Source: Actinomycetota bacterium (lineage in GTDB: Bacteria > Actinomycetota > Actinomycetes > S36-B12). From it: a DNA stretch of 55,876 nt. The notes under the pieces are model-generated. The model saw only the letters and a list, made by a program, of their open reading frames with translations, was not told where the DNA came from and ran no database searches. Positions 1,245-43,322 of this stretch are shown here, piece after piece (position 1 is the stretch's first letter; every line of letters starts with the position of its first letter). Where the stretch lies: assembly GCA_947449945.1 (NCBI GenBank), contig CANFTO010000002.1, positions 1 through 55,876 of the forward strand. The letters run 5' to 3'. Position numbers and translations under genes: made by a program.

Positions 1245-1291
1245 GCCGTCCGTCCACCACAATTGGGGGCGAGCATTGATGGAGGATTTTC

Positions 1292-2341: not shown

Positions 2342-2367
2342 TTCACGAAGAAGACAAGGAGACTCAC

Positions 2368-20535: not shown

Positions 20536-20634
20536 CCCCTCCGACGAGGGCTGAGCCGGATTTTGGAGCCCAAGTCATGCCGCTAGTATTAGTTCTCCGC
20601 GCAAGCGGGTGAGATTGGTTTCGGCTGATTTCAT

Positions 20635-20711
20635 GGTGGGTATAGCTCAGCTGGTAGAGCGTCGCGTTGTGGTCGCGAATGTCGCGGGTTCGAGTCCCGT
20701 TACTCACCCCA
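20635..20711 (+). tRNA. tRNA-His (anticodon GTG) with encoded G-1 and CCA
   Basis: Cloverleaf folded by hand. Acceptor GTGGGTA/TACTCAC with an extra 5' G opposite C73; anticodon stem TCGCG/CGCGA with loop TTGTGGT; T arm GCGGG-TTCGAGT-CCCGT; 3' CCA. Confidence 0.95.
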
Positions 20712-20758: not shown

Positions 20759-21208
20759 CTAGGACTTGTCAGTGCGCATGCGATGAAAGTCGATGCCCGC
20801 GAATAACCAGCGGTCATCGACTTTTTCGTACGTATCGAAGTAATACCCCACACTGCGCACAGTTTTGATCGCCGGGTCCGACGGGTACTCAACATGTTCT
20901 GGGAACACTAAATAGTCACTGATGGCCCAGATCCCGCTTGCGTGGGTTTCATCCACAATCGTGATTTCACTTTGATGGCCTGCATGAAAAGTGAACACTT
21001 CACCGAGAATCCCGCGGATCTGATCGCGCATCTGTTCTTTTCCCGCGAAGGTGTAGTCGGACTCGTGATTGGTGAAATAGCAAGTCGGCGTAAAAAGTTC
21101 ACCGAACTCATCCCAAGCTTTGGTATCAACAAAGCGCCAATACTGCGCGCGCAACACACGAAGGTCTTCAATCGCTAGCAACCGGACCAGCGGATCGATA
21201 TCACTCAT
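20759..21208 (-). CDS. SnoaL-like / NTF2-fold protein
   Basis: IEDLRVLRAQYWRFVDTKAWDEFGELFT is a typical SnoaL_4/NTF2-like N-terminus. It is the last gene of the catabolic operon. Confidence 0.6.
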   Translation of the reverse strand: MSDIDPLVRLLAIEDLRVLRAQYWRFVDTKAWDEFGELFTPTCYFTNHESDYTFAGKEQMRDQIRGILGEVFTFHAGHQSEITIVDETHASGIWAISDYLVFPEHVEYPSDPAIKTVRSVGYYFDTYEKVDDRWLFAGIDFHRMRTDKS

Positions 21209-21225
21209 GAGCTACTCCTTGCGGG

Positions 21226-22263
21226 TTACTGACCTTCTTGAGCTGCATGCGCACGAGCGAGTTCAAGCGCCACATCGATAATCATGTCCTCTTGGCCACC
21301 CACAACCTTGCGGCGACCAAGTTCCAAGAGAATCTCTGCCTGACTTACGCCATAACGCTCTGCTGCCTTTTGTGAATGCAGCAGGAACGAGCCGTACACA
21401 CCGGCATAGCCAAGGATTAGCCCAGCACGGTCAATTACTTGCTGGCGCGGCATCATTGGTCGCACGATCTCTTCAGCCAAATCCATCAGAGCAAGCGGAT
21501 TCACGCCGGTTTCGATTCCGTACTTCGTACTTACCGCTGCCAAAATTTCCGTTGGGCAGTTACCCGCACCGGCACCCAAACCTGCACTCGTGCCATCAAG
21601 GTTCTTCGCGCCTTCCTCATAAGCAGCAATGGAGTTCGCAACAGCCATCGACAGGTTGTTGTGCGCATGCACACCCACAGGAATTTCAAGGGCATTTACG
21701 AGAGCATTGACCCGACGACGTACATCTTCAGTTGTCATCGCTCCTGCAGAGTCCGCGATGTAAAGCGTGTCAGCCCCATAGGACTGCATCAACAACGCCT
21801 GCTTGACGAGATCTTCAGGGGTACTCATATGCGACATCATCAGGAAGCCAATGGCTTCCATTTCTAGCTTCTTGGCAACCTTGATGTGCTGCTCAGTGAT
21901 ATCGGCTTCGGTGCAATGCACAGCGAGACGCGCGACGTTCACCCCGAGTTCCTTGACCTCACGAAGGTCATCAGCGACACCAATTCCTGGAAGCAACAAG
22001 CAGGCTATTTCGGCATTGGTGGTGGCTTCACAGGCACGGGCAATTAGCAACTTCTCGTCGACCTTAGAAAAGCCATAGTTGAAGCTTGAACCGCCGAGGC
22101 CATCGCCATGAGCAATCTCAATAACCTCAACACCCGCAGCATCAAGACCCTTAACAATGTTGATGACATCGTCTTCGGTGTATTGATGGCTAATGGCGTG
22201 TGAGCCATCGCGCAGAGTCGAGTCGATAAGGCGGAAGTCGCGATGTGTCGTTGGCGTGCTCAT
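21226..22263 (-). CDS. mhpE: 4-hydroxy-2-oxovalerate aldolase
   Basis: [17 protein letters not shown] matches the DmpG/BphI/HsaF/MhpE family N-terminus. There is a 4-nt overlap with the acetaldehyde dehydrogenase gene. Confidence 0.9.
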
Positions 22264-23174
22264 GCGTTGGCTCCTGACTTGTGAATCGAAATCGCTTCGC
22301 CTACGCGCAAAGCGGCAGCCGTCATGATGTCGAGGTTGCCTGAATACGGAGGCAAGTAATCGCCTGCACCTTCAACCTCAAGGAGGGCCACAACTCGATT
22401 AGGAACAACTCCACCCGGTGTATTGAATGGGCCGGCTTCAATTACTGGTTCATTCTTCAGGTGATAGCCGGGCACATATTTCGCCACTTCTTCAACCATT
22501 TCCAGGATCGAAGCAATCACTGCATCGTGATCTGAACCTTCAGGGAGTGCACCGAACACGGTATTGCGCATCATGATCGGAGGATCTGCAGGATTCATCA
22601 CGATGATGGCTTTCGACGTGTTGGCACCACCAATTTCACGAAGTGCAGCGCTCGTGGTCACGGTGAACTCGTCAATGTTTGCGCGAGTTCCAGGGCCTGC
22701 AGAAAGGGAAGCAATCGTTGACACCATCTCGGCATATGGCAACTCATCAATCGCGCGACGAATTGCGTAGACGATTGGTGTTGTTGCCTGACCGCCACAC
22801 GTGACCATATTGACGTTCATTGAATCCAGATGCTCATAAAGATTCACTGCGGGAATAACTTTTGGTCCACGCGCTGCAGGAGTGAGATCCACTGCGACGA
22901 TCCCGGCTTCGCGATACTTCGGTGCATTGCGTACGTGCACATACGCGCTTGTCGCATCGAAAATCATGTCAATGTTGTTGCCTGGATCAAGAACCCACTC
23001 TGGACCCTCGTGCGGAGCCAGTAGGCCAAGGCCCTTGGCGCGCTTAAGTCCATCACTTTCAGGATCAATACCTACAAGTGCGACCAGATCCAAAACATCA
23101 GAGCGAAGCATTTTGAACATCAGGTCAGTGCCGATATTTCCTGACCCCAGGATTGCGCAGCGCATTTTCTTCAT
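22260..23174 (-). CDS. mhpF: acetaldehyde dehydrogenase (acetylating)
   Basis: [14 protein letters not shown] is the N-terminal Rossmann motif and VTCGGQAT contains the catalytic Cys. DmpF/BphJ/MhpF family. Confidence 0.9.
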
Positions 23175-23180
23175 GAATGC

Positions 23181-23969
23181 TTACTTCACTTCCACTGTGA
23201 TTGAACCAAGACGATCAAACTCTGCGGTGAATGAGTCACCCGAAGACGCAGGAACCATCGCATGCAATGCGCCGGTCATGATGACCTGACCGGCCTTGAG
23301 TACGACACCCATCGGAGCCAATGTGTTGGCGAGCCAGGCAACAGTGGCCAACGGGTCACCCATGGCTGCAGCTCCGGCGCCAGTAGCGAGCACTTCGCCG
23401 TTCTTAGAAAACACCATGCCGATGTGTCGAGGATCGAAACCTTCAATAGGAACAACCTTGCCGCTCAACGCGATCGCGCCACCACTTGCAAGATCCGCAA
23501 CCGTGTCGGCAAGTTTGATTTTCCAGTCAACAATGCGCGAATCGACGATTTCCAGTGCCGCAGAAAGCCCCACGGTTGCATCGCGAACATCGTCCACTGT
23601 GCAATCAGGTCCACTCAGATCCTTTCCAAGAATCAAGCCAATTTCGCCTTCGATACGAGGCGCAATGAACTGATCGCGTGGAATCGTGGATCCATCCTTG
23701 AAAATTCCCGATTCAAATATTGGACCAAAGTCAGGCTGATCAATACCGAGCAGTTCCTGCATTGCCTTTGACGTAAGACCCAACTTGTATCCAGTTATGA
23801 CTTCACCGTTGGAAATCAGCTTCTCCACCAAACGTTGCTGAATCTCGTACCCGTCAAGCATGCCAAGTCCAGGAGCATCATCGGTGAACGCAGCGATGGC
23901 TTGCTTGGTTTGCCGAGCTTCGTACAAAGCATCGGCGTGCACTTGAGCCTGTTCGGCATTGATGGTCAT
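23181..23969 (-). CDS. mhpD: 2-keto-4-pentenoate (2-oxopent-4-enoate) hydratase
   Basis: FAH-fold hydratase strings (GYKLGLTSKAMQ, PRIEGEIGLILG). It sits immediately upstream of the dehydrogenase/aldolase pair. Confidence 0.85.
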   Translation of the reverse strand: MTINAEQAQVHADALYEARQTKQAIAAFTDDAPGLGMLDGYEIQQRLVEKLISNGEVITGYKLGLTSKAMQELLGIDQPDFGPIFESGIFKDGSTIPRDQFIAPRIEGEIGLILGKDLSGPDCTVDDVRDATVGLSAALEIVDSRIVDWKIKLADTVADLASGGAIALSGKVVPIEGFDPRHIGMVFSKNGEVLATGAGAAAMGDPLATVAWLANTLAPMGVVLKAGQVIMTGALHAMVPASSGDSFTAEFDRLGSITVEVK

Positions 23970-24017
23970 GCTGCTCCTCGATCGATCGGTAGTTCAGGTC
24001 TCATTATTCGGCACGGG

Positions 24018-24281
24018 TCAGTGCGCGTGCGGTTCGCCTCGTAGCTGCGCTTTAGCGTAAGCACCGACTGCTAACCATTCGGTGCGCATTTCGGGTGTAG
24101 CGATGACAAAACTGGCCAGCTCCAGCGGATCAAGGTACGCAACCTCGTGAGTTTCTAAATCCTCAATCAGGAGCCGTGGACTTTTCCCTGCCCGATCAAT
24201 GGCAACGCGAACCGCAGCAAATTCGTTCCACACAACCTCTTCTGGCTTGTCGGTGATGCCAAGGGTCCAGTTATTGCTCAT
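24018..24281 (-). CDS. hypothetical protein (87 aa) embedded in the operon
   Basis: Its ATG overlaps the CoA-ligase stop by 4 nt (ATGA), which suggests translational coupling. I recognise no family. Confidence 0.4.
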   Translation of the reverse strand: MSNNWTLGITDKPEEVVWNEFAAVRVAIDRAGKSPRLLIEDLETHEVAYLDPLELASFVIATPEMRTEWLAVGAYAKAQLRGEPHAH

Positions 24282-25837
24282 GAGGGAGTGTCCTCTGCAA
24301 CAACCTTCTTCAGCTCGCTCTTGAGAACCTTGCCTGCACCGCTCAGTGGGAAATCGGTGTGCGTAGTGAAACCACGTGGTTGCTTGTAACCGGCAAGTTC
24401 AGCTCGACACAGATCCTTAATCTCTTGCTCAAGTTGGGCTTGATCGCCACTCCATTGCGATCGAACCACCACAGAAACATGGGGGCTTTCACCCCATTCT
24501 GGGTGCGGCATGCCAAACACTGCAACGGACTCAACACCTGGGTGCCGCGCAACAACTCGTTCAAGCTCTGCTGGGTAGATATTGAAGGCACCGCTAATGA
24601 TGAGGTCGTTCTTGCGATCAACAAGGAACAGATAGCCATCTTCATCCCGATAAGCGATGTCATTGGTGAATAAGGTGTCGCCGCGGAATCGATCCGCTGT
24701 TTCTTCTGGACGATTCCAGTAACCCGGGCTCACCGCTTCTGATCGCAGGGTGATTTCGCCAACCTCACCAGGTGCGCATTCCTTGCCATCGTCATCAACC
24801 ACTGCAATTTCTGCATACATCGACTCACGACCACATGAATTGACTCGTGAGACGTCGCCAAGAGCAATCTGTCGGTGATCTTCAGGTGACAACATCGTGA
24901 CGAAACCGCCAACTTCAGACTGGCCGTAGCGTTGCCAAAGATCACAACCGAGCAGTTCGAGCGCACTCTCAATGAGCGGAGCAGACGCTGGAGCCGATCC
25001 ATAGCCAATGCGCGTCAAAGAAGAGATATCGACTTTTGGTCGCTCCTCTAAATATGACACCACGCGCTGCAACATCGTAGGCACCATGATTGTTGAGGTA
25101 ATGCGGTATTTCTCAACAGTTGCAAGCACTTCTGGCACTTCAAACTTTGGCATGATCACCATGGTTTGGCCTTGATACGCCCAAGAAAGTGTGCGGAAGG
25201 CTCCACCAGAGGTGAAGAAGGGTGTAACGGCGATGTAGCGATCGTCATGGCGACTGCGATCCATGACAACTTGATCAACACAGCCTGCCAACATCGTTCG
25301 ATGCGTATGCATCACTGCTTTTGGTAGTCCAGTTGTTCCTGAGGTGTAGATAAACGCGCGCAAATCATCTGGCTTAAGATCACTTGGTGTTGGATCTCCA
25401 GCAGACGCAGCAAGAATTGCTCGCTCATAATCAGGAGCTGCTCCTGCACCATCAATCTCCAACGCGATTGTGATATCGCTGTTTCCGGCTATCACCGCTG
25501 TTGCCGCTTCGGCAACAGATCCATGGAAGATCAACGCCTTTGCGCCACTGTCTTGTGCCTGGTACTCAAGTTCAGCGGGAGCCAAACGCACATTGAGGGG
25601 CACAAGCACGAAACCTGCTTTGGACAAACCAAAGGAGATCTCTGGCCACTCAAGGGTGTTTGGCGCGAACATGGCAACGCGATCACCTGGTTGCAGTCCG
25701 GCATTGCGCAAGTAGGAGCCAATTCGGTTAGCTCGGTCATTGACGGCAGACCACGTCAACTCTCGACCTTCACAAATAATTCCAACTTTGTTTGGGTAAC
25801 GACGAGCATTCAGGCGTGGAATATCACCAACGAGCAT
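24278..25837 (-). CDS. AMP-forming acyl/aryl-CoA ligase (ANL family)
   Basis: AMP-binding motif IYTSGTTGLPKAV, plus YGQSE and a C-terminal GKVLKSELK. The ATG at 25837 has an AAGGA RBS, and the longer ORF-track start (25882) lies inside the upstream gene. Confidence 0.85.
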   Translation of the reverse strand: MLVGDIPRLNARRYPNKVGIICEGRELTWSAVNDRANRIGSYLRNAGLQPGDRVAMFAPNTLEWPEISFGLSKAGFVLVPLNVRLAPAELEYQAQDSGAKALIFHGSVAEAATAVIAGNSDITIALEIDGAGAAPDYERAILAASAGDPTPSDLKPDDLRAFIYTSGTTGLPKAVMHTHRTMLAGCVDQVVMDRSRHDDRYIAVTPFFTSGGAFRTLSWAYQGQTMVIMPKFEVPEVLATVEKYRITSTIMVPTMLQRVVSYLEERPKVDISSLTRIGYGSAPASAPLIESALELLGCDLWQRYGQSEVGGFVTMLSPEDHRQIALGDVSRVNSCGRESMYAEIAVVDDDGKECAPGEVGEITLRSEAVSPGYWNRPEETADRFRGDTLFTNDIAYRDEDGYLFLVDRKNDLIISGAFNIYPAELERVVARHPGVESVAVFGMPHPEWGESPHVSVVVRSQWSGDQAQLEQEIKDLCRAELAGYKQPRGFTTHTDFPLSGAGKVLKSELKKVVAEDTPS

Positions 25838-25850
25838 GTTCTTGAGTCCT

Positions 25851-26324
25851 TTAGATAATGAAAGCGACGGTGCGAATGGCATCTTCGTTGTTGACCAACA
25901 GTGCAGTCTTTTTCACGAGCTGCAAACCATCAGCTGTGCGACGAACGGTGTAGAGGTAGCGACCAGCCCATACATGTGTGCCATTGCGATGTTCGTACAA
26001 CACGAAGTTGGCACCAATATTGACGTCATCGCCTTGTTCGCCGAGCACTTCAAGGTTGCTGAGCATGCGGCGCATCTTCGATGGCGGGCTTTGTGAATAG
26101 CGGCGACCCGTTTTCAACTGAGCTAAACGGCTATGAATACGACTGCGATTGTCATAGATATATGAAACGTCTACCGAAGGATCTGAGTCGTCTTTGGTAG
26201 GCAACCAATAAATCGCATCGTCAGCCCACAGCGACTCCCAGTCGTCATAACGACTTTCATCCGCGTAGCGAGCTTCCAAGTACAGGAAGGCTGCAATGTC
26301 ATCGGGAACATGAGTGTTTGTCAT
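25851..26324 (-). CDS. aromatic ring-hydroxylating oxygenase, beta (small) subunit
   Basis: The string FLYLEARYADESRYDDWESLWADDAIYWLP fits the RHO small-subunit (NTF2-like) family. The start overlaps the alpha-subunit stop (TAATG). Confidence 0.8.
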   Translation of the reverse strand: MTNTHVPDDIAAFLYLEARYADESRYDDWESLWADDAIYWLPTKDDSDPSVDVSYIYDNRSRIHSRLAQLKTGRRYSQSPPSKMRRMLSNLEVLGEQGDDVNIGANFVLYEHRNGTHVWAGRYLYTVRRTADGLQLVKKTALLVNNEDAIRTVAFII

Positions 26325-27619
26325 TACGCCTGATCCTCTGTCATGAGTTCCTTATAGTGCACCCACATGGCGCGCTGGGTGGTTTCTGAGGTGCGGTCGT
26401 ATGAAGTTAGGCCCTTATCTTCCTGAACTTCTGAACTGAATCCGCGTGAAAGCAGCGCCCATTCAGGCTGCTTAGCCGCCAATCCAGCTTGGTTGCGCTC
26501 TCCCATCTCACCATCGTCAGCAATTAAGAATCCTGCTGGCCCCATGGCACCTTCAGCATTACGAAGAATGCGTGCATTAATTTCTTCTCCACCCGCAATG
26601 TGAATAGGTGCGGTGTATTGAATGGATTCATTCGCGGCAACTGGCTCAACCATGATTACGTGCATTTCAGCAAGGAAGAGGTTTGGCCAAATAAATGTAT
26701 GTGGAGGGCCATCAACAAAACGCTTGTGTGTTTCATCAGCGCCAACCGCTGCTTCCATCGCCGCTACGTACTTGGCCATTTTTTCACGAGGGGTGCGCTT
26801 GAACCAAATGAATTCAGCATCTTGCGCCTGGTATTCACGTGAGTAATCGACTTCGTTGTGGCCGCCACCAAGATCGCGAGTCGCAACCAACAATTCGTCA
26901 GACGCATAGTCAACTTTGGCCGGCATGATTGCCTTATAGACCGACTCATGCGTGAAGAGGGGGTGGTATCCATCAACCTGTGATTCGTTCACGATTTTCC
27001 AGTTTGCTGCTGACCTGTGCTTCATCCAGCCACCTCGCAATTCAATGCGACCTTCTGGCGAAAGGCTCAATAGGCGATCAATAGGTCCCTTTGCCCGACC
27101 GATGTAATCATCGAAGCTTCCAGCGTTTCCATAAAGGTTGGCGAAGATGAATCCACCGTAGATTTCAACTTGATGCGCTTGAGCCATCCCCAGCTCTGAT
27201 CGCATTTCAGCCATTTCTTGGTCGTAGCCCTCACGGAATGGAACACCCTGCAAGCGGCCATCGTTGGCGTACGTCCAACCGTGATACGGGCAACGGAAGA
27301 GTGCGGCGTTACCGGAATCTGCACGGCACAACATATTTGCTCGGTGGGTGCAGCGGTTGAGCAGCACGCGAACCACTTCATCCTTTCCGCGAGCAACAAT
27401 GACTGGCTGACGGCCGATACGGCGAGTGAGGTAGTCACCCTTCTCAGGGATCTCACTGTCATGACCAACAAAGACCCATGCGTTCTCAAACAACGCGGTC
27501 ATTTCAAGGTCGAAAATAGCTGGATCGGTGTATAGCGATCCATGGATTCGATCATGCTGAATAAGCGAAGCAATATCGATCGAAGATGCGCGATCCATTT
27601 GTGCTGTCATCTCTGTCAA
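26324..27619 (-). CDS. Rieske [2Fe-2S] aromatic ring-hydroxylating oxygenase, alpha subunit
   Basis: Rieske motif CTHRANMLC...CPYHGW and mononuclear-iron motif DGYHPLFTH. There is a 4-nt overlap with the upstream DUF35 gene. Confidence 0.9.
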   Translation of the reverse strand: MTEMTAQMDRASSIDIASLIQHDRIHGSLYTDPAIFDLEMTALFENAWVFVGHDSEIPEKGDYLTRRIGRQPVIVARGKDEVVRVLLNRCTHRANMLCRADSGNAALFRCPYHGWTYANDGRLQGVPFREGYDQEMAEMRSELGMAQAHQVEIYGGFIFANLYGNAGSFDDYIGRAKGPIDRLLSLSPEGRIELRGGWMKHRSAANWKIVNESQVDGYHPLFTHESVYKAIMPAKVDYASDELLVATRDLGGGHNEVDYSREYQAQDAEFIWFKRTPREKMAKYVAAMEAAVGADETHKRFVDGPPHTFIWPNLFLAEMHVIMVEPVAANESIQYTAPIHIAGGEEINARILRNAEGAMGPAGFLIADDGEMGERNQAGLAAKQPEWALLSRGFSSEVQEDKGLTSYDRTSETTQRAMWVHYKELMTEDQA

Positions 27620-28044
27620 CCTTTCACTGCGGTGTTGATGATGCGTGGGATGTTTTGGGTGCCAACGCGAACAAATTCAAGACGGACTTCTGTACCTGGG
27701 GCCATTGGTGTGTCGGAAACTGTGCTCGTGGACACGATGATGCGATGCCCAGAATTCAGCGATACTTCAATGACTGGATAAGCCGCATCTTGCTTCACAT
27801 AACGAGCGTCGACGCGATTCATCATGATGGAAACTGTGACTCGACCTGCAGGATCAACTGCCTCCCATACGCGTTCTTGGTGTGCACATTCATCGCAATG
27901 CAGTTGATCAAGATCAAGCGGATGCTTACACGCTGCACAAAATGGCAGCACGAGCATGCCTTCAGCTGAACCGGCCAAGTATTCAGTCAGTGGAGCGACG
28001 TCACTCGGTGCAGCTGATTCGTGAAGGAGCCAGTCGATGGTCAT
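27616..28044 (-). CDS. DUF35 protein (Zn-ribbon + OB fold), partner of SCPx-type thiolases
   Basis: Four-Cys ribbon CAACKHPLDLDQLHCDEC followed by an OB-like C-terminal half. It overlaps both neighbouring genes by 4 nt. Confidence 0.8.
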   Translation of the reverse strand: MTIDWLLHESAAPSDVAPLTEYLAGSAEGMLVLPFCAACKHPLDLDQLHCDECAHQERVWEAVDPAGRVTVSIMMNRVDARYVKQDAAYPVIEVSLNSGHRIIVSTSTVSDTPMAPGTEVRLEFVRVGTQNIPRIINTAVKG

Positions 28045-29198
28045 TGCTGTACTCCCATCACGAGTGCGTTCACGCTTTCAAGACGGCCACCAACAGACAC
28101 AACCATTGAAGTACCGGCATCGGCAATCTGACGGTTGCCACCCTGGCCGCGTAGCTGGGTAACTGCCTCAATTAGTGGGGTCGCACCCTGTAAGTAGAAC
28201 CCAGAAATTTGGCCACCGCCAGTATTTATTGGCAATGATCCGCCATGTCGCGTGTTTCCAGCCGCGATGAAGCTTCCTGCTTCCCCTGGCCCGACAACTC
28301 CCAACTCTTCCATCATGACCAGCGGAACGATCGTGAAAGCGTCGTAAATTTGAAGATTATCAATCGCGTCGACGGTCGTGCGTGCCTGCTTGAGCGCATC
28401 CGTAAACACCTCAGCAGCACCAACTGGGCGCCACGGAGAATGCGGTGCATGACGACGGCGCATAGTGTGACGCTGGGCCATGCCCCGAACGAATACCGGA
28501 TTCAGTGAATTCGATGAGTTCGGCTTGGAAACGATGAATGCCGCAGCGCCACTGACTGGTCGAGCGCAGTCAAGGCGACGAAGTGGAGCCGCGACAAGAG
28601 GTGCCTCATCATATTTTTCACGAGTCAGTGGTTCTCGAATCCAAGCAAGTGGATTCTCTACTGCCCATGAGCGCTGTGCTTGCGCAACAGCGAACAGGTC
28701 ATCGACACCTGCGTTGCGTTCGACAAAGTAGTGCTGTGCGATGAGGGCGTAAGCCGCTACTGCTCCGAGCATTCCTCCTGCACGTTCAAGTCCGCGGTAG
28801 CCAGTGTCTCCACCCATGCTTGCAAAGGCAGCTCCTGACGGAGCATTGGGCGAGATTGCTGCATCGGCGAAAACCACCACGATGTTGTCAGCTTCGCCAG
28901 CGTTGACCATGTCCGTTGCTTGCTTAAGCAACACCGACATCGTGGTGCCCTTTGACTCAAGTTCGTACAAAACCTTGAGCGTGCCAAAAGCTCCACGTCG
29001 CGAAAGATCTAGAGTGAGGTGATCGTCAGCAATCAGTTCATTTTGATTGATCAGCAACCCGTCGATTTCTCGAAGATCTAAACCAGCTTCTTGCGCAGCC
29101 ATTGAAATAGCTGACAGAGCATTGCCAGTTGCATCCGGGATTTCTTTCGGACCACAAATGACAACGCCCATCCCAGTGATGGCTGCGGATTGACTCAT
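28041..29198 (-). CDS. SCPx/Ltp-type thiolase-like protein (possibly a lyase rather than a thiolase)
   Basis: Thiolase-fold length and strings (ITGMG, LDCARPVSGAAAFIV, INTGGGQISGFYLQGATP). I cannot find a nucleophilic Cys motif at the expected position (ELESKGTTMSVLL). Confidence 0.75.
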   Translation of the reverse strand: MSQSAAITGMGVVICGPKEIPDATGNALSAISMAAQEAGLDLREIDGLLINQNELIADDHLTLDLSRRGAFGTLKVLYELESKGTTMSVLLKQATDMVNAGEADNIVVVFADAAISPNAPSGAAFASMGGDTGYRGLERAGGMLGAVAAYALIAQHYFVERNAGVDDLFAVAQAQRSWAVENPLAWIREPLTREKYDEAPLVAAPLRRLDCARPVSGAAAFIVSKPNSSNSLNPVFVRGMAQRHTMRRRHAPHSPWRPVGAAEVFTDALKQARTTVDAIDNLQIYDAFTIVPLVMMEELGVVGPGEAGSFIAAGNTRHGGSLPINTGGGQISGFYLQGATPLIEAVTQLRGQGGNRQIADAGTSMVVSVGGRLESVNALVMGVQQ

Positions 29199-29200
29199 AG

Positions 29201-30037
29201 CTACTTGCCTGCCTTGCTGAGGAAGTCAGTCGCAAGGGCGGTGAAATCAGCCGCGCGTTCGATCTGCACCCAGTGACCTGTATGTGGGAAAACATGAAGC
29301 TGCGCATCATCGATTGATTGCAACAACGTCATCGAACTTTCCAATGGGATGACCTGATCTTCTCGACCGTGAACCAACAACGTTGGATGTGCCACTCGAG
29401 CAAATTGCGATGGGTTCAGTGCCAGCAGTTCAATCCACTGCTGACGAGGTGCTGGGAAGAGAGACTCCCAGCGATCCTGTGCACCTTCTTTGATTGACGC
29501 TTGGTAACGCAATTCTCCAAGGTTTGCGGGCAACAGACTTCGGTCATACGTGAAGATCTCGAGGAGATTTTCCATTGCTTCAACCGATGGTTCATAACCC
29601 CACACGGCATCGAGACCGTCAGTCAGCTCAAAGGAAGCACCGACGCTGCCCATCAGCACAAGGCGATTAACCATCTCTGGATAGGTCGATGCAAACCAAA
29701 GTGCGAGCGCTCCGCCAAAGGAGTTGCCAATAATTGAAACCTTGGCTACACCGAGTTCATCAAGAAAGGTCTTGATATGGCGAACCCAGTCATCAGTGCG
29801 TGGAACGACGTTGCCATCGATTTCGGTGAAACCAAAACCTGCAACGTCAGGAGCAAGCACCCGGAACTGCTTTGCCAGCTCGGGCAAAATCAAACGCCAA
29901 TTTGCGTAGGCACTCACGCCAGGGCCTGATCCATGAATCAACAACACCACGTCACCTTCACCACCATCGTGATAATTGGTGGTGAAGGTGTCGTGACGAA
30001 GACTTAACCCAATTTCTGGGTTGGTTGGTGCATTCAC
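29201..30037 (-). CDS. meta-cleavage product (C-C bond) hydrolase, MhpC/BphD/HsaD type
   Basis: LLIHGSGPGVSAYANW, nucleophile elbow GNSFGG and C-terminal HTGHWVQIE are typical of MCP hydrolases. Confidence 0.85.
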   Translation of the reverse strand: MNAPTNPEIGLSLRHDTFTTNYHDGGEGDVVLLIHGSGPGVSAYANWRLILPELAKQFRVLAPDVAGFGFTEIDGNVVPRTDDWVRHIKTFLDELGVAKVSIIGNSFGGALALWFASTYPEMVNRLVLMGSVGASFELTDGLDAVWGYEPSVEAMENLLEIFTYDRSLLPANLGELRYQASIKEGAQDRWESLFPAPRQQWIELLALNPSQFARVAHPTLLVHGREDQVIPLESSMTLLQSIDDAQLHVFPHTGHWVQIERAADFTALATDFLSKAGK

Positions 30038-30603
30038 GAATTTGCCACAATCTGAGCATGTGATTCAAAGGCGCGAGCCATGTGCACAACTTCACTTGCA
30101 ACCATGCGGAGACCTTCTTCGGCGCCAGCCACTCCGGTTCCGCCTTCATCGGTTGCTGTGTTGACGACACAGCCATATGGCGTTGGCCATCCACGAAGCG
30201 CATGAACAATCATGCGAATCGTGGAGAGGGTGTTCACCGCTGCTTGGTAACCCTTAGCTACAGCGATGCTGCCAACGGGAATACCGGCAAAGTAGGAGCG
30301 CTCATCGCGCGCCATATCTTCCGTGTAATCCAATGCATTCTTGAGCATTCCAGAAATCGAGCCGTGATACGCCGCGGCAGAAATGATGATTCCGGAGGCC
30401 GCACGCATAGCCTCAACGAATTCCTTGGCTTCAGGAGTTCGATCCGGATCTGTTGGGTCATACATTGGCAACTTCTTCAACAGGTCACCTGAGAAAATCT
30501 TGACCTCTGCACCCTGTCGCTGTGCTTCATCCAGTGCTATGCGCAATGCGCCATCACTTGATGAAGTTGGACTCACTGTGCCGCCAATACCGACGATCAA
30601 CAT
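30034..30603 (-). CDS. NAD(P)H-dependent FMN reductase
   Basis: Flavodoxin-like fold. The N-terminus MLIVGIGGTVSPTSSS and the AAYHGSISG string fit the FMN_red family. Confidence 0.8.
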   Translation of the reverse strand: MLIVGIGGTVSPTSSSDGALRIALDEAQRQGAEVKIFSGDLLKKLPMYDPTDPDRTPEAKEFVEAMRAASGIIISAAAYHGSISGMLKNALDYTEDMARDERSYFAGIPVGSIAVAKGYQAAVNTLSTIRMIVHALRGWPTPYGCVVNTATDEGGTGVAGAEEGLRMVASEVVHMARAFESHAQIVANS

Positions 30604-30639
30604 AAACGTTTCTGCTTTCTTTGTGTTTTGCGGTTGAGA

Positions 30640-31800
30640 TCAGAATGATTTTCTAGAGTCGTAGTTCGCAATTGCTTGACGAACTGCATTCGCACCGAGC
30701 TCACGACCCTCATCGAGGAATTCGAAGAAGCCATTCTGTGAGTCAATCTTGCGCTTGCTTTGGCGATTGACCTCAGGGATAACGTACTCAGCAAAGAGTT
30801 CGAAGGAACGCTTGGTTGCCTCAGGGTTAGCCCACTCGTGACCCATGAGCATGTAGGTGCCGAAACCACCAGTTTGCTCCTGGAGGCGAAGAATCTGCTG
30901 AACAGCGTCATCTGGCGTACCGATGATGCCTGCACCTGATTCCTGAACCATTTGAATCGAGGTCTTGCCTTCTTGGTAACGGGAAGGCTTGTTAAGCGCA
31001 GCTGCCCACACTTCGGTGATTCGAAGCCACTGAGCAACCATCTCGTCCATGCCGTAGCCGACATCCTTTTCAGCCTGCTCACGCGTTTCAGCGATGTGCA
31101 TTGGGCCAACAAGGCGCCAGTTCTCGCGCTGTGGCTTTGGCTGACCGTAACGCTCTGCAGCTTCTTCTGCGATTGACATGTGATTTGCGAGTGCTGCGAA
31201 GCCACCTTCCGTGGTTGCAGCGGTTGAGATCATCGACAGGTTGTGCTTGCCGGCAAGTGCTGGTCCTGATGGTGAAACCACACACACGGTTGCGATTTCA
31301 AAATCGGTCATTGGCTTGAACTGCAGGATTGCTTCGTTCAATTCGAACCAGTCAGTCTTCATGGTTACTGGCTCATCTGTGCGCAGCAATTGCATGATCG
31401 CGTCAAGGCACTCTTCCATGCGGCGACGTTGGTCATTTGGGTGAATACCCATCATGAGTGCGTCTTGTGGCAATGCGCCTGGTCCAACGCCCATGAGCAA
31501 ACGGCCGTTGGTGAGGTGATCAAGCGTTGCATAACGCTCGGCGGTCAAGAATGGGTTGTGGTACGCGAGTGAAACGACGCCTGAGCCCAGAATGATGCGC
31601 TCTGTGCGACGTGCAGCAGCCGCGATGAATAGGTCAGGTGCAGGAATTAACTCCATACCGCCTGAGTGGTGCTCACCGAACACAACCTCATCGAAGCCCA
31701 AGTAATCCAGGTGCTCGATCAAGTCAAGGTCACGGTGCAATGCACGCGTGGTATTTGCCCTTGCCGAATGGAAAGGAGAAAGGAATAAACCGAATCTCAT
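30640..31800 (-). CDS. LLM-class (luciferase-like) flavin-dependent monooxygenase, LimB-like, copy B
   Basis: MRFGLFLSPFH...FGEHH...GVGPGALP...IIGTPDD...GGFGTY are TIM-barrel LLM strings. It is a paralogue of 34463-35662. Confidence 0.8.
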   Translation of the reverse strand: MRFGLFLSPFHSARANTTRALHRDLDLIEHLDYLGFDEVVFGEHHSGGMELIPAPDLFIAAAARRTERIILGSGVVSLAYHNPFLTAERYATLDHLTNGRLLMGVGPGALPQDALMMGIHPNDQRRRMEECLDAIMQLLRTDEPVTMKTDWFELNEAILQFKPMTDFEIATVCVVSPSGPALAGKHNLSMISTAATTEGGFAALANHMSIAEEAAERYGQPKPQRENWRLVGPMHIAETREQAEKDVGYGMDEMVAQWLRITEVWAAALNKPSRYQEGKTSIQMVQESGAGIIGTPDDAVQQILRLQEQTGGFGTYMLMGHEWANPEATKRSFELFAEYVIPEVNRQSKRKIDSQNGFFEFLDEGRELGANAVRQAIANYDSRKSF

Positions 31801-31846
31801 TGCGTGACACTCCTTTGTAGAGATGGAACTTTGCTGGCGTTGTTAC

Positions 31847-32716
31847 TCATTTGCTATTCCCGACTGCGCTCACCGCAACACCCATGCCGGTGATCCATTC
31901 AGGGATAGGTACATAGGTGAATCGACCAGCTGAGGCGCCTGCGGCTGCCCAGGCTGCGACCCACGTGCGAATTTCGTGCGTTCCTGAGCCCACCGAAGTG
32001 AGTTCAGGATCTTGATATTCGCGTAAAACAGACCAATTGCTGGTCGTTAAAGCCTCGAGGAACTTCTCATCCCATGGAGCGTTCACATACTTCGCTGCAT
32101 CCAGAACTGATTTGCGCGCAATCGCTTCGCGTTCTTCCGAAGGCAAAGCTCGCACTTCAGCGCTCATTGACGGCGGTTGATGTGAGAGGCCACCTGAGCC
32201 AAGGAACAACACCCGCTTATTGGTTGTTGCCATGAAGGCTCCAACAGCCTGAGCCAGATCAATTGCTCGTGAGACTGACGTACGTGGCATTGATGCGCAG
32301 TTCAACACGATGGGAATCACTGGGATTGCATCAAGTGCGCTGAATAACTGCATGAATGTTTGTCCGAAGCCATGATCGATACGAACCTCGCTACCAACAG
32401 CGACATCGAAATCATGACTCAACAGGTGCGCAGCTAGCTGGTCTGCGAGTTCAGCTGGAACCACATACGGATCTTCTGGGGTTCCCCAGTCACCGAATCC
32501 AATCGCCGATGTTGCAATCGTGATCGGTGGCACGATTCCCTGAAGCGCCCGGAAATGATCGGGCCCAAAGAACACTACGAGTTCAGGATCAAAGGCTTGA
32601 ATCGTTGCCTTGACTTCCTCGATTGCATGAAAGAAGGTCGCGCCAGCCTCGCCAGCATCAACATTATCCAACAACGGGCTATGCGAAGCACAAACGCTTA
32701 AGAACTTTGCACTCAT
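31847..32716 (-). CDS. mhpB: class III (LigB/MhpB-type) extradiol catechol dioxygenase
   Basis: CASHSPLL, FFGPDHF, RIDHGFGQ, LFLGSGGLSHQPP, THEIRTWVAA and IPEWITG are strings I associate with 2,3-dihydroxyphenylpropionate 1,2-dioxygenase-type enzymes. Confidence 0.85.
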   Translation of the reverse strand: MSAKFLSVCASHSPLLDNVDAGEAGATFFHAIEEVKATIQAFDPELVVFFGPDHFRALQGIVPPITIATSAIGFGDWGTPEDPYVVPAELADQLAAHLLSHDFDVAVGSEVRIDHGFGQTFMQLFSALDAIPVIPIVLNCASMPRTSVSRAIDLAQAVGAFMATTNKRVLFLGSGGLSHQPPSMSAEVRALPSEEREAIARKSVLDAAKYVNAPWDEKFLEALTTSNWSVLREYQDPELTSVGSGTHEIRTWVAAWAAAGASAGRFTYVPIPEWITGMGVAVSAVGNSK

Positions 32717-33591
32717 TGATGAGCCTCCACATATTCAGTGACGATCGCGTTGAACGATTCTGGTTGTTCCCACTGCGGCCAATGACCTGCATCGTCAATA
32801 ACTTTGAGTTCACCCTGTGGAGTGATTTCAGCAGCACGCTGGGCACCCTTGACTGATCCACCTGGATTGTGTTCGCCCCATAGGTACAACACCGGAACAC
32901 TGATCGATGCCAAGAGCTCAGGTGTCAGGCCAAACTTCACTCGCCCTGGTGAGTCATACGGAATCATCTGATGTAAAGCAGGGATGAGTTCGGGAGCACC
33001 TGGTTGTGAATACAACGCCAAGCGCAGGTCGACGAGTTCTTCTGGGCAACGATCAGTGTTGTGGAACAGGGTATGCAGACGATTGCGCACCGTGTCGCGA
33101 TTCAGTGTTGCTAATTCATCATTGGCTTTCTTCCAGGAATCACGATCTTTGGCCTCATTCGCCGGCTGACCTTCAGGCCAACGGAACACTGCACCAGTTG
33201 CATTCACAACACACGTCACTCGCTCAGGGCTTTCAATCGCTAACCATGAAGCTACCCAGGCACCAAGCGACAAACCTACGAAAGCGGCTTTCTTAATATC
33301 CATAACATCCATCAGGTCACGTACTTGTTGGACGTAATCTGGGATCAAGTAATCGATATCGGTTCGCTTATCGCTCAGACCATGTCCAACAAAGTCAAAG
33401 GCAATGACGTGGAAGTTTTTTGCTAATGCATTGAAGTTTTTTGCCCATGCTTCTGCGTGACCCCCTGTGCCATGAAGTAAGAAAATGGCAGGGCCACTTC
33501 CTGCTTCAATGCATCGGGTGCGAGTCCCCTTCGCATCTCGATACACCACTTCGGTGCCTAACATCATGTTCCACAATGTTGAATGACTCAT
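32713..33591 (-). CDS. alpha/beta hydrolase, second MCP-hydrolase-like enzyme
   Basis: FLLHGTGGHAEAW, nucleophile elbow GLSLGAW and C-terminal DAGHWPQWEQPE. It overlaps both neighbouring genes by 4 nt. Confidence 0.8.
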   Translation of the reverse strand: MSHSTLWNMMLGTEVVYRDAKGTRTRCIEAGSGPAIFLLHGTGGHAEAWAKNFNALAKNFHVIAFDFVGHGLSDKRTDIDYLIPDYVQQVRDLMDVMDIKKAAFVGLSLGAWVASWLAIESPERVTCVVNATGAVFRWPEGQPANEAKDRDSWKKANDELATLNRDTVRNRLHTLFHNTDRCPEELVDLRLALYSQPGAPELIPALHQMIPYDSPGRVKFGLTPELLASISVPVLYLWGEHNPGGSVKGAQRAAEITPQGELKVIDDAGHWPQWEQPESFNAIVTEYVEAHQ

Positions 33592-34454
33592 GCGGCAATC
33601 CCTGACAACACAGTGGTTTGATATTCCTCAATCCGGTCCGAGAAGGCATTGAGGTCACCATCCCAAACTGAAAGAAATACGCGATCGACGCCAATGTCAT
33701 TGAGCTCCTGCAACTGCTCAAGAGTTGCTGGAGCAACCATCGTGATTTCTATGTCACTTGGATTTTTACCAGTACGTTCGCATTCATCGGCAATTCGTTG
33801 CTTAACCTTGCGAACTTCATCAGCACTTGAGCGCATGAGATGCATACCCGCTCCAAAACGCACGGCGCGACGAACAGCTGCCTCAGAGATTCCACCAATG
33901 ACCAGTGGAATCGACTTCGTTTCGGGCTGCGGAGTGCAATACATATTTTCAAAACTGACGAATTCGCCCTTGAACGTGGCCGGCGATTGAGCCCAAAGAG
34001 CAGTCATCGCTTCGAGGTATTCATCTGCACGTGCACCTCTACGAGCAAACGGCACGCCCACCGCATCGAATTCTTCAGACAACCATCCAAGACCTAAGCC
34101 AAGGATGATGCGTCCGTTCGATAACCGATCCAAGGTTGCCATCTGCTTAGCAAGCACGACTGGATTGCGAATCGGAAGAATCACAACGCCGGTCGCCAAC
34201 TTGATTTTGCTTGTTGAAGCTGCGAGATAACTCATCCACACGATCGGATCAGGGAGATCGTCGTTGCCCGTGAGCCCCATTCTTCCGCTGGAATCAAATG
34301 GGTAGACAGAGTCGTACGAGGCAGGAACCACTACATGTTCCACCATCCACAGCGACTCACAATTATGAGCCTCTGCGATGGCACCAAGCTGCGCAACGTA
34401 GTCAGGGTCAGATGCACCCTTACCCGTTGGAACTCGAGATACCCCAAACTTCAT
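33588..34454 (-). CDS. LLM-class oxidoreductase, probably F420-dependent
   Basis: The 288-aa short LLM form carries strings (LWMVEHV, LDRLSNGRIILGLGLGW, PLVIGG) that are typical of actinobacterial F420-dependent LLM reductases. Confidence 0.65.
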   Translation of the reverse strand: MKFGVSRVPTGKGASDPDYVAQLGAIAEAHNCESLWMVEHVVVPASYDSVYPFDSSGRMGLTGNDDLPDPIVWMSYLAASTSKIKLATGVVILPIRNPVVLAKQMATLDRLSNGRIILGLGLGWLSEEFDAVGVPFARRGARADEYLEAMTALWAQSPATFKGEFVSFENMYCTPQPETKSIPLVIGGISEAAVRRAVRFGAGMHLMRSSADEVRKVKQRIADECERTGKNPSDIEITMVAPATLEQLQELNDIGVDRVFLSVWDGDLNAFSDRIEEYQTTVLSGIAA

Positions 34455-34462
34455 TGGACGAC

Positions 34463-35662
34463 CTACTCGCCACTCTTTGGCTTGTAGTTCGGATCAGCCG
34501 CGCGTTCATCAGCGAATTGCTGACGAGCCTTCTCGCGTGCTGCGAGCACCCCAGGAGTGAGATCCGGACGTCGCTGAATCGCGTACTCCTCTGCCTTGAT
34601 CATCCACTCGGTACTGCCGGTGAAGTGCGGAATCACTTCATTTGCGAACAGTTCATATGACTTCAAGGTGTTCACTCGATTGGCCCACTCATGTGCCCAG
34701 AGCAAATAGGTGCCGAAACCACCAGCTTGTTCATACAAGCGCTCAATCTGCGCGATGGCCATTTCCGGAGTGCCAATGATTGCGAAACCTGATGCGACCA
34801 GGGTCTTGGCCCATGAACCATCAACTAAACCTGATGCAGGGAGAATTGGCAGCGTGCTGACGTCCTTCATGTAGTACGCCCACTCTTGGATGCCTTGTTC
34901 AACATCTGCGTAAGCCTGCTCTTCAGTTTCAGCAAGGTACATCGGGCCAACCATGCGCCACTGGTCACGGGAAACAGGAGTGCCATAACGCTCTGCCTGC
35001 TCTTCCATAATGTCCCAGTGCTCGGCAAGCACGTTGAAGCCTGCTTGCTGGGTTGCATTCATGGACAGCAACGTTGCACCGAGGCGACCTGCAAGACGTG
35101 GACCGTTTGGCGAGATCGTTGCTGCGATCGCAACGTCAATGTCTTTGCCGTTGTATGGCTTGAGCTGCAATGCAGCGCCGTTGAGTTCGAACCAGTCGGT
35201 CTTCATTGTGACGCGCTCGCCACGAATAAGCGCCATGATGGCTTCAACTGACTGCTCCATCATTTCGCGCGTATTCAGCGTGCTGATGCCCATAGCTTCT
35301 GCGTCATATGGGAGTGCGCCTGGGCCGACACCCAACATGATGCGACCATGCGAAAGGTGGTCGAGCATCATGAAGCGCTCAGCCACGTTGAATGGGTGGT
35401 GGTAAGGAAGCGACACCACACCGGCCCCTAGTTTGATTCGTGTGGTGCGTGCAGCCACGTACGAAAGGAATACATCGGGAGACGCAACGAACTCCCAGCC
35501 TGTTGAGTGATGCTCACCCATCCAGGCCTCATCGAAACCAAGGCGATCCATGTGCTCAATGAGCTCAACATCGCGTTGGAGCGCGAGCGTTGGACTCTTG
35601 CGGCTTGAGTGCACTGGGGAAATGAATGTTCCGAACTTCATGCGGCCAGTTGGCTTCGACAT
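34463..35662 (-). CDS. LLM-class flavin-dependent monooxygenase, LimB-like, copy A (first gene of the operon)
   Basis: ATG preceded by AGGAG. MKFGTFISPVH...MGEHH...GVGPGALP...MKTDWFEL...IIGTPE...GGFGTY. Confidence 0.8.
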   Translation of the reverse strand: MSKPTGRMKFGTFISPVHSSRKSPTLALQRDVELIEHMDRLGFDEAWMGEHHSTGWEFVASPDVFLSYVAARTTRIKLGAGVVSLPYHHPFNVAERFMMLDHLSHGRIMLGVGPGALPYDAEAMGISTLNTREMMEQSVEAIMALIRGERVTMKTDWFELNGAALQLKPYNGKDIDVAIAATISPNGPRLAGRLGATLLSMNATQQAGFNVLAEHWDIMEEQAERYGTPVSRDQWRMVGPMYLAETEEQAYADVEQGIQEWAYYMKDVSTLPILPASGLVDGSWAKTLVASGFAIIGTPEMAIAQIERLYEQAGGFGTYLLWAHEWANRVNTLKSYELFANEVIPHFTGSTEWMIKAEEYAIQRRPDLTPGVLAAREKARQQFADERAADPNYKPKSGE

Positions 35663-35845: not shown

Positions 35846-35935
35846 CCGACACTTGTTCATTGAGTGAATGGAACGTATGATCTCGCGCACGCGTTGTCAA
35901 TGGTTTTGCCCAACAAAGATGGAAGGGATGCGGTA

Positions 35936-37305: not shown

Positions 37306-37310
37306 TTCGT

Positions 37311-37868: not shown

Positions 37869-37915
37869 GTCGACTCCCTATCGATTCTTGGTCAATCAGA
37901 TCTCGTGCAACACTC

Positions 37916-41797: not shown

Positions 41798-41873
<76 letters not shown>

Positions 41874-42505: not shown

Positions 42506-42579
42506 AACTCATTCGCGTCGGCGCCCATGCGTTGGCGCTTCCTTTGAATTCTCACGTTTACTTTTGGAAGGTTTTATCA

Positions 42580-43308: not shown

Positions 43309-43322
43309 GGGATACTGAAAAT

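Follow-up and report, generated by a model that had tools for sequence, protein, structure and literature searches.

Sphingomonads that degrade ibuprofen employ a strategy of activation with coenzyme A (CoA), dioxygenation and retro-aldol cleavage, and so far this strategy has been tied to these organisms. The genes, ipfABDEF(HI), are known from Sphingomonas Ibu-2, Rhizorhabdus wittichii MPO218 and Sphingopyxis granuli RW412; in the ipf pathway of plasmid pIBU218 the ring-cleavage genes are located elsewhere on the plasmid (PMC9195938). A different logic is found in the mhp operon for 3-hydroxyphenylpropionate and the hsa genes for rings A/B of steroids, which combine an oxygenase and its flavin supply with an extradiol dioxygenase, a meta-cleavage-product (MCP) hydrolase, a hydratase, an aldolase and an acylating dehydrogenase. 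Here we analysed a stretch of 55,876 nucleotides from an Actinomycetota bacterium (assembly GCA_947449945.1, contig CANFTO010000002.1, positions 1 to 55,876; hereafter the window). It contains counterparts of both systems within a predicted operon of 17 genes, which we number g1 to g17 in the direction of transcription.

We propose that the operon serves the catabolism of an acid of the arylacetate or 2-arylpropionate type, or of a ketone or alcohol from which such an acid is formed, by CoA-dependent dioxygenation, deacylation to a catechol and meta-cleavage. The probability of this reading we estimate at roughly 55%. It is built on gene content, homologies, conserved catalytic residues and synteny, from which we infer all reactions, the substrate and co-transcription. 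The acid would be activated by a CoA ligase (g12). A Rieske oxygenase (g10/g11) would then dioxygenate the ring of the CoA thioester at the side-chain-bearing carbon and its neighbour, with electron donors encoded elsewhere in the genome. An SCPx-thiolase-like protein (g8) with its DUF35 partner (g9) would split off acetyl- or propionyl-CoA in a retro-aldol reaction, which leaves a catechol. The ring would be opened by an MhpB-like LigB dioxygenase (g4), and g7, g14, g16 and g15 would convert the ring-fission product into pyruvate and an acyl-CoA. This predicted core route, from ligase to dehydrogenase, is well supported by homology. The remaining set of enzymes comprises two luciferase-like monooxygenases (LLM; LLM_A, g1, and LLM_B, g5), a flavin mononucleotide (FMN) reductase (g6), a second hydrolase (hydrolase 2, g3) and an F420-dependent LLM-class oxidoreductase (g2). 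Supplied by g6, g1 and g5 most likely constitute a two-component FMN-dependent Baeyer-Villiger-type monooxygenase (BVMO), with g3 as esterase and g2 as alcohol dehydrogenase. Acting on an aryl ketone or alcohol group, such a set would produce a phenolic or catecholic hydroxyl, or an acid, suited to the ring-cleavage enzymes.

An earlier note on this DNA, made from the sequence alone, knew of no characterised operon with this combination, and none was found in our literature searches. The composite cluster, actinobacterial ipf genes and links between LimB and LLM proteins were mentioned at the BLAST level only, and so were Mycobacteriales-type Ipf-like clusters (PMC11347016). The operon is a conserved composite of known enzyme systems, itself without published characterisation. 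For each of its parts there is clear precedent, and aromatic clusters without characterisation are frequent.

The note had also placed the DNA in an aquatic actinobacterium. This proved correct: the host is a freshwater Candidatus Nanopelagicales, a 99%-identical copy of g1 being annotated in NCBI to a Candidatus Nanopelagicales metagenome-assembled genome (MAG), and a bacteriorhodopsin-like gene of the actinorhodopsin type (44838-45668, minus strand) fits a planktonic freshwater host. Nanopelagicales are among the most abundant lake bacteria and have streamlined genomes. An aromatic catabolic operon of 15 kb is a notable investment for such a genome and suggests that a specific class of aryl acids, of plant, humic or pollutant origin, serves as carbon source.

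The Ipf-like block and the meta-cleavage genes

The genes were compared with the Pfam and NCBIfam families by profile searches. These searches confirmed the domain assignments and the gene order of the earlier note throughout, with a weak DUF35 call for g9. All 17 proteins were further compared by tblastn with 80 loci from a scan of genome collections; individual loci are cited below by L numbers. For ipf, a tblastn search of plasmids matched pIBU218 of R. wittichii MPO218 and a plasmid of S. granuli, and the annotated ipf region was used for comparison. Coordinates of operon genes refer to the minus strand.

The resemblance to Ipf suggested before was upheld. All five Ipf component types are present in the window, and for four of them homology to the ipf genes of pIBU218, which have been characterised genetically, is clear: g10, g11, g8 and g12 are 40, 45, 38 and 33% identical to IpfA, IpfB, IpfD and IpfF, respectively. 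The order of genes is A-B-D-E-F in ipf and D-E-A-B-F in the window. The ring-cleavage genes, remote in the sphingomonads, are in the same operon here.

The Rieske oxygenase alpha subunit (g10, 26324..27619; Rieske and Ring_hydroxyl_A) starts either at ATG 27610 or at TTG 27619. The former is the choice of the gene caller on L088, a 98%-identical metagenome contig. Its predicted Rieske ligands C90/H92/C110/H113 and residues H219/H224/D368 are invariant among 19 homologues, and the best match in the PDB is 7yls (2e-57). An exact-sequence look-up of the 431-aa reading of g10 gave no match, which we put down to a wrong start codon. The beta subunit is encoded by g11 (25851..26324; Ring_hydroxyl_B, E=5e-26). 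The acyl/aryl-CoA ligase (g12, 24278..25837) has the AMP-binding and AMP-binding_C domains in the 519-aa reading used here. The longest open reading frame (ORF) of g12 extends to 25882; the 519-aa start, 13 nt downstream of g11, is the one called in L088.

The predicted retro-aldolase g8 (28041..29198; Thiolase_C_1) matches 4u4e and the steroid aldolase Ltp2 (6ok1) in the PDB at 1.7e-27. An exact-sequence look-up of g8 gave matches in 2-kb contigs only. In Ltp2 the catalytic residues are Tyr294, in a YDHF motif, and Tyr344 (PMC12329534). When g8, IpfD and five actinobacterial orthologues were aligned (HMMER alignment to 6ok1; MAFFT), both tyrosines were kept in all of them, as YD(A/P)F and SGFYLQG; the first of these motifs, YDAF in g8, has the form YDxF in both g8 and IpfD. 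None of these proteins has a cysteine at the position of the thiolase nucleophile. The Ltp2-ChsH2(DUF35) aldolase has the same SCPx-thiolase-like fold, both tyrosines and a DUF35 partner with a zinc ribbon. It differs in that the DUF35 partner of the window stands alone and is not fused to a hydratase, that the histidine of YDHF is an alanine in the window, and that the gene context is aromatic, not steroid. A steroid pathway, to which the matches with Ltp2 and HsaD might point, was considered and rejected: no KshA-, HsaA- or HsaC-type genes are present, and the oxygenase, which includes a beta subunit, clusters with IpfA and IadD. The presumed partner of g8, g9 (27616..28044), is a DUF35-like protein with a four-cysteine zinc ribbon (CxxC...CxxC) and an OB fold. 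The gene keeps its position in other loci, and OB_ChsH2_C does match the orthologues from L083, L089 and L084.

The last gene of the block, g13 (24018..24281), encodes a conserved 87-aa protein which accompanies Rieske alpha/beta genes and has no counterpart in ipf. It is a real gene, being 50-63% identical in Ipf-like loci of Mycobacterium, Rhodococcus and Streptomyces, and the family comprises 433 representative clusters at E<=0.001. It is also located beside a different, unrelated Rieske alpha/beta pair in L175. Pfam and NCBIfam gave no match for g13, and a Foldseek search of the PDB with its AlphaFold2 (AF2) model (predicted local distance difference test, pLDDT, 62) gave none at E<0.1. 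The protein may be an accessory of the oxygenase. The missing ferredoxin it is not, because it has no cysteine.

On present evidence, then, the g8-g12 block would work like Ipf. Its membership is incomplete: it has no electron-transfer genes, and its DUF35 partner is recognised only weakly.

The meta-cleavage lower pathway is complete in the window, with an extradiol dioxygenase, a C-C hydrolase and the trio of hydratase, aldolase and acylating dehydrogenase. The dioxygenase g4 (31847..32716; LigB, E=6e-33) is of class III. It scored 266 bits with NF009909, just under the cut-off of 286, and matched 2,3-dihydroxyphenylpropionate 1,2-dioxygenase (PDB 8k04) at 1.5e-49, so that the MhpB-type dioxygenase predicted from the sequence was found. 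The MCP hydrolase g7 (29201..30037) scored best with the HsaD and BphD models (184 and 151 bits, both below the equivalog cut-offs) and has a GNSFG nucleophile elbow, of the GNSxG type of C-C hydrolases, and an H-W motif. The 2-oxopent-4-enoate hydratase-like protein g14 (23181..23969; FAA_hydrolase) is full-length, yet its 269 bits with TIGR03220 are below the cut-off of 408.8. The acylating acetaldehyde dehydrogenase g15 (22260..23174; TIGR03215, 412 bits) and the 4-hydroxy-2-oxovalerate aldolase g16 (21226..22263; TIGR03217, 497 bits) are above their cut-offs of 282 and 286, respectively.

This part of the operon follows the logic of mhp and hsa but differs in the oxygenase. MhpA is a flavin adenine dinucleotide (FAD) enzyme and HsaA has an acyl-CoA-dehydrogenase fold, whereas the window has a luciferase-like (TIM-barrel) oxygenase with an SsuE-type FMN reductase. 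In addition, the window has a second hydrolase, an F420-type LLM and the inserted CoA-dependent block. The last gene of the operon, g17 (20759..21208; SnoaL_4, E=6e-19), encodes a SnoaL_4/NTF2-like protein of 149 aa. It was seen only in the window population (L088) and is absent from the other composite loci.

Conservation of the composite cluster

The Ipf-like block as such is common in Mycobacterium, Rhodococcus (e.g. DK17 pDK3), Streptomyces, Tomitella and Williamsia, at 35-63% identity (Rieske alpha 52-57%). Examples are the clusters of Rhodococcus sp. DK17 pDK3 (L087) and Mycobacterium heckeshornense (L084/L085), in which a g13-like ORF, the SCPx-like protein, DUF35, Rieske alpha/beta and the CoA ligase form the same block at 40-63% identity. 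The genes that flank it encode a g3-like hydrolase, an HpaH-type hydratase and an HpcH aldolase, as well as acyl-CoA dehydrogenases; genes for LLM_A, LigB and FMN_red are not adjacent. A strategy known from sphingomonads may thus be represented by a widespread actinobacterial block with a small protein as constant companion, and in one clade this block is embedded in a meta-cleavage operon which uses luciferase-like monooxygenases.

The full composite is rarer than the Ipf-like block alone. In addition to lake-metagenome contigs L088, L092 and L113, which carry the same cluster as the window, it was found in L089, L177 and L003 and in part in L083. In L089, a Nocardioidaceae MAG, the order is LLM_A (73%), F420-LLM (59%), hydrolase 2 (61%), a short-chain dehydrogenase/reductase (SDR), LigB (60%), FMN reductase (65%), MCP hydrolase (64%), SCPx (61%), DUF35, Rieske alpha (74%), Rieske beta (68%), CoA ligase (66%) and a small ORF, followed by an ABC transporter. 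The metagenome contig L177 has a Fer2 reductase, IclR, LLM_A, hydrolase 2, SDR, LigB, LLM_B, FMN reductase, MCP hydrolase, SCPx, DUF35, Rieske alpha/beta and CoA ligase, which is the order of the window with the second LLM included. In L003 (Arthrobacter sp. AZCC_0090) and the metagenome contig L083 the order is retained, but a Peripla_BP_6 ABC transporter separates the Ipf-like block from the dehydrogenase/aldolase genes. The window has no transporter at all and also lacks the SDR of its relatives. Transporters of the Peripla_BP_6 type are consistent with uptake of an acid substrate.

The composite order is thus conserved at 60-75% protein identity in L089, L177, L003 and L083, which argues for functional coupling. 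We regard the arrangement as a conserved supra-operon and not as a one-off fusion, as judged from gene order and protein identity. This modifies the earlier view of three normally separate modules hard-wired together: all the parts are present, but the combination is not unique. The survey of module co-occurrence proposed at that time indeed turned up the combination in at least four other lineages.

The boundaries then drawn between the modules did not hold. In L172 (Micromonospora radicis) LLM_A (70%), hydrolase 2, LigB, FMN reductase, MCP hydrolase, hydratase, dehydrogenase and aldolase are found with no Ipf-like block between them, and L175 and L173 carry further variants of the LLM/LigB/FMN-reductase set. 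Hence what had been listed as the first and the third module, i.e. LLM and FMN reductase, both hydrolases, LigB and hydratase/dehydrogenase/aldolase, is one conserved unit that occurs alone in L172, and the Ipf-like block is nested inside it.

A unit of this kind suggests another reading. The gene logic in L172, an oxygenase, LigB, a reductase, a hydrolase, a hydratase, a dehydrogenase and an aldolase, resembles that of the mhp and hsa operons. Possibly, therefore, the operon comprises two convergent upper routes. The LLMs and the FMN reductase would be phenol ortho-hydroxylases with a function like that of HsaAB or MhpA and would act on a phenolic acid, the Ipf-like block would act on a non-phenolic aryl acid, and both catechols would be passed to LigB. 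Hydrolase 2 and the MCP hydrolase would then each take one kind of ring-fission product. Such a division of labour agrees with the structural comparison, in which g3 matched MCP hydrolases best, and with the location of the g3-like hydrolase of Mycobacteriales next to hydratase and aldolase genes. On the other hand, L176 has a separate gene for an MhpA-like FAD hydroxylase, divergent from LLM_A-hydrolase 2; the tight pairing of LLM_A with hydrolase 2 is left unexplained, and g3 does not have the asparagine of the GNSxG elbow. To our knowledge aromatic ortho-hydroxylation is not an established activity of LLMs, which also counts against this explanation. On balance we consider two convergent routes rather unlikely.

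The luciferase-like monooxygenases and their partners

LLM_A (g1, 34463..35662; Bac_luciferase, E=5.6e-49) is a predicted FMN-type luciferase-like monooxygenase of 399 aa. Orthologues with 67-75% identity are located beside hydrolase 2 in L003, L089, L172, L175, L176 and L177. LLM_B (g5, 30640..31800; Bac_luciferase) is a second enzyme of the FMN type and a paralogue of g1 (50% identity). In L173 a 70% orthologue is found in the same LigB-LLM_B-FMN_red arrangement, and L177 likewise has an LLM gene at this place. The best PDB matches of g1 are luciferase alpha and 3,6-diketocamphane monooxygenase, and the same structures are closest to g5; similarity is low (E about 1e-18 to 1e-21) and best over the N-terminal third only.

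The NAD(P)H-dependent FMN reductase g6 (30034..30603; FMN_red, E=7e-24) belongs to the SsuE-type family and is presumed to supply flavin to g1 and g5. Orthologues in L089, L172, L173 and L175 are 60-68% identical, and an FMN_red gene has the same position in L177. Genes for a luciferase-like oxygenase and a separate FMN reductase thus occur together in the window and in these five loci.

The F420-dependent LLM-class oxidoreductase g2 (33588..34454, 288 aa) scored 250.1 bits with TIGR03619 against a cut-off of 166.9, and the assignment of one F420-type LLM made earlier was hereby confirmed. Its orthologue in L089 is at the same position; the gene is absent from L003, L172 and L177, which have an SDR gene nearby instead. 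Hydrolase 2 (g3, 32713..33591; Abhydrolase_1) is an alpha/beta serine hydrolase with a GLSLG nucleophile elbow, which is without the asparagine of the GNSxG elbow of g7. Its sequence is compatible with an esterase/lactonase as well as with a divergent C-C hydrolase. An Asp-nucleophile epoxide hydrolase, paired with a LimB-like epoxidase, was ruled out by the GLSLG elbow, i.e. a serine nucleophile.

LLM_A and hydrolase 2 are adjacent, or have only the F420-LLM between them, in seven loci. A BVMO, an esterase and an alcohol dehydrogenase are the classical trio for the removal of ketones. Enzymes of the LLM family have precedent as catabolic BVMOs (PMC12239570). Among these type II BVMOs, the 2,5-/3,6-diketocamphane monooxygenases with Fred, the progesterone LLM of Caenibius tardaugens and AbmE2/AbmZ have in common with the window the luciferase-like fold, a separate flavin reductase and a catabolic setting. 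The 3,6-diketocamphane enzyme is among the closest solved structures of the window LLMs, but similarity is low and the window clade is known from sequence only. Because of the tight LLM-hydrolase pairing, the precedent for catabolic LLM BVMOs and the similarity to diketocamphane monooxygenase we favour, and infer, a role of the LLM/FMN-reductase/hydrolase 2/F420-LLM (or SDR) set as BVMO, esterase and alcohol dehydrogenase. We know of no sequence signature by which BVMO activity is separated from other LLM chemistries. A metagenome scan with LLM_A retrieved mostly relatives with 41-53% identity whose surroundings contain no other gene of the cluster, so that the LLM family in its full breadth is not tied to this pathway.

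In L177, the closest composite relative, a gene for a classical type I BVMO-like flavoprotein of 600 aa (FMO-like/Pyr_redox_3; 1232-3034, minus strand) is located just upstream of the reductase and IclR genes, together with one for a metallo-beta-lactamase-fold protein. The BVMO-like gene is a further hint which links ketone oxidation to this family of clusters.

If BVMO and esterase act in this manner, all modules could also be joined in a single linear pathway. The Rieske oxygenase would hydroxylate the benzylic beta-carbon of a 3-arylpropionyl- or 3-arylbutyryl-CoA, and cleavage by the Ltp2-like aldolase would yield acetyl-CoA together with either an aryl aldehyde or an aryl methyl ketone. 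From the carbonyl group of this aldehyde or ketone the LLM BVMO and the esterase would make a ring hydroxyl, a catechol would result where an ortho hydroxyl is already present, and meta-cleavage would follow. Such a route would account for the nesting of the Ipf-like block inside the LLM/meta-cleavage unit; a beta-hydroxyacyl-CoA is all that the aldolase needs, and the BVMO-plus-esterase logic has precedent. Yet the closest characterised relative, IpfAB, is reported as a ring dioxygenase (PMC9195938). Moreover, the route requires a pre-existing ortho hydroxyl or another hydroxylase, and benzylic hydroxylation is without direct evidence in this clade of oxygenases. We therefore hold it to be improbable, and equally improbable in the extended form in which all 17 genes make up one linear route for aryl-alkanoic acids in freshwater Actinobacteria with the 87-aa protein as accessory subunit of the oxygenase.

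The reading we prefer, Ipf-type dioxygenation and deacylation to a catechol followed by meta-cleavage, has to be weighed against several findings. Identity to the Ipf proteins is no more than 33-45%. The match of g9 with OB_ChsH2_C (E=0.008) is below the cut-off, and g9 is 25% identical to IpfE with a pairwise E of 0.01. A ferredoxin or reductase for the Rieske oxygenase (of the IpfH/IpfI type) was not found anywhere in the 55.9-kb window. The operon is, accordingly, not self-sufficient; an FNR-Fer2 reductase gene is located just upstream of the cluster in relatives L003 and L177. The Mycobacteriales loci with an Ipf-like block show no gene for an extradiol dioxygenase within about 10 kb (the PLSDB annotation may be incomplete). 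A catechol as product is, therefore, not assured for the family, and the ring-opening step for the Mycobacteriales blocks is unexplained or encoded elsewhere. Next, g1 and g5 are below the cut-off of every NCBIfam subfamily, and the sole name given to the LLMs in databases, the KEGG-derived 'limonene 1,2-monooxygenase', is a lead only. The closest PDB matches of g3 are the C-C hydrolases HsaD, CumD and BphD (about 1e-21), not esterases, and the NCBIfam models for HsaD and PcaD scored about equally with g3, both far under the cut-off. Should a catechol arise directly from the Ipf-type reaction, that route would not require the LLM/hydrolase set, so that the role of the set is a guess. Finally, the SDR of the relatives might be a dihydrodiol dehydrogenase, in which case the Rieske step would involve other chemistry than in Ipf. 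Once the pairing of LLM and LigB is worked out, aromatic catabolism would gain a new logic for an upper pathway, and enzymes for the removal of profen-type drugs could become available.

Operon layout and surrounding genes

The layout described in the earlier note, 17 minus-strand genes with overlaps of 1 or 4 nt and a largest gap of 48 nt, was reproduced by the ORF listing and by junction arithmetic. The 17 ORFs are intact and consecutive from 35662 down to 20759. Four-nt overlaps are present at six junctions (g2/g3, g3/g4, g6/g7, g8/g9, g12/g13 and g15/g16), and a 1-nt overlap at g10/g11 only. The g9/g10 junction is a 4-nt overlap with the TTG start of g10 and a 5-nt gap with the ATG start, and an apparent overlap of 32 nt between g11 and g12 disappeared with the 519-aa start of g12. 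The other gaps are 8, 46, 36, 2, 13, 48, 6 and 17 nt.

Likewise, internal hairpin terminators had been reported to be absent. A consensus scan gave 21 terminator-like sites in the operon against 15.9 +/- 4.4 in shuffled sequences, i.e. not above chance; all are weak, all are within coding sequence and none is in a gap. Promoter-like sites numbered 3 against 11.5 +/- 3.2 in shuffles, with none in the intergenic gaps, as scanned with a sigma-70 consensus, which is a poor model for actinobacterial promoters. An AGGAG ribosome-binding site precedes g1, and its non-coding leader, about 200-330 nt long, is common to g1 and a divergent gene for a TetR-family regulator (35864..36577, plus strand; TetR_N, E=4.9e-14). 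The true start of the TetR gene is probably later; in L088, where it has the same divergent arrangement, it is called at 213 aa. The TetR protein is the probable repressor of the operon; in relatives an IclR regulator takes its place. Co-orientation, short or overlapping junctions and gaps free of terminator-like sites make one transcript for all 17 genes likely.

The three largest gaps deserve attention in this context. Those of 46 and 36 nt flank LLM_B, and that of 48 nt separates g13 from the hydratase gene g14, i.e. the Ipf-like block from the lower pathway. At these same gaps relatives differ or carry inserted ABC-transporter genes. Hence the 17 genes might not be one functional unit but two or three independently regulated operons for unrelated substrates, transcribed from internal promoters, for which the sigma-70 consensus of the scan is a poor model. 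The single regulator gene, the single upstream non-coding region, gaps of 48 nt at most with no terminator-like site in any of them, and the gene order, conserved across lineages at 60-75% identity, all speak for one unit. A split operon thus appears very unlikely, and we retain a single unit for the catabolism of an aryl acid via a catechol.

Downstream, the operon is bounded by a convergent tRNA-His gene (20636..20711, plus strand; ARAGORN), 47 nt past the last stop codon. A 124-aa ORF at 20333-20707 (minus strand) has no family match and is almost certainly spurious because it overlaps the tRNA-His. In the related contig L175 (6447-9000) this tRNA-His again has the RNase T and Usp genes as neighbours; after it come rve and DDE transposase genes and a differently arranged variant of the LLM/LigB cluster. 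In L088 (16867-17770) three small genes, among them SHOCT and DUF6325 genes, are found between the tRNA-His and the operon. The tRNA-His site looks like a variable region or hot-spot. An integrated island at this site was considered: a repeat of the 3' end of tRNA-His or another att-like repeat was sought in the window, and none was found. Together with the uniform GC content of about 52% across the window this gives no sign of recent transfer.

On the other side of the operon, the region 36574-38539 contains a MoCF_biosynth/FLAD1_M gene (plus strand), which overlaps the TetR gene by 4 nt, followed by genes for a THAP4-like haem-binding beta-barrel protein and a VKOR-family protein on the minus strand. 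The first two of these three genes are neighbours in L088 as well. Farther along, just after a tRNA-Lys gene (41798-41873), a DUF1775 (YcnI-like) protein and two CopC-domain proteins, probably for copper handling, are encoded at 42346-44484 (plus strand). A MoxR-like AAA ATPase and a VWA-domain protein (13837-17207, minus strand), beside genes for GGDEF and LuxR-type regulators, are apparently unrelated to the operon. At 4737-6494 (plus strand) a protein of 585 aa is encoded which matches the animal haem peroxidase family over its full length (E=4.6e-161). The gene is flanked by pirin and TetR genes and is unusual for a streamlined freshwater actinobacterium.

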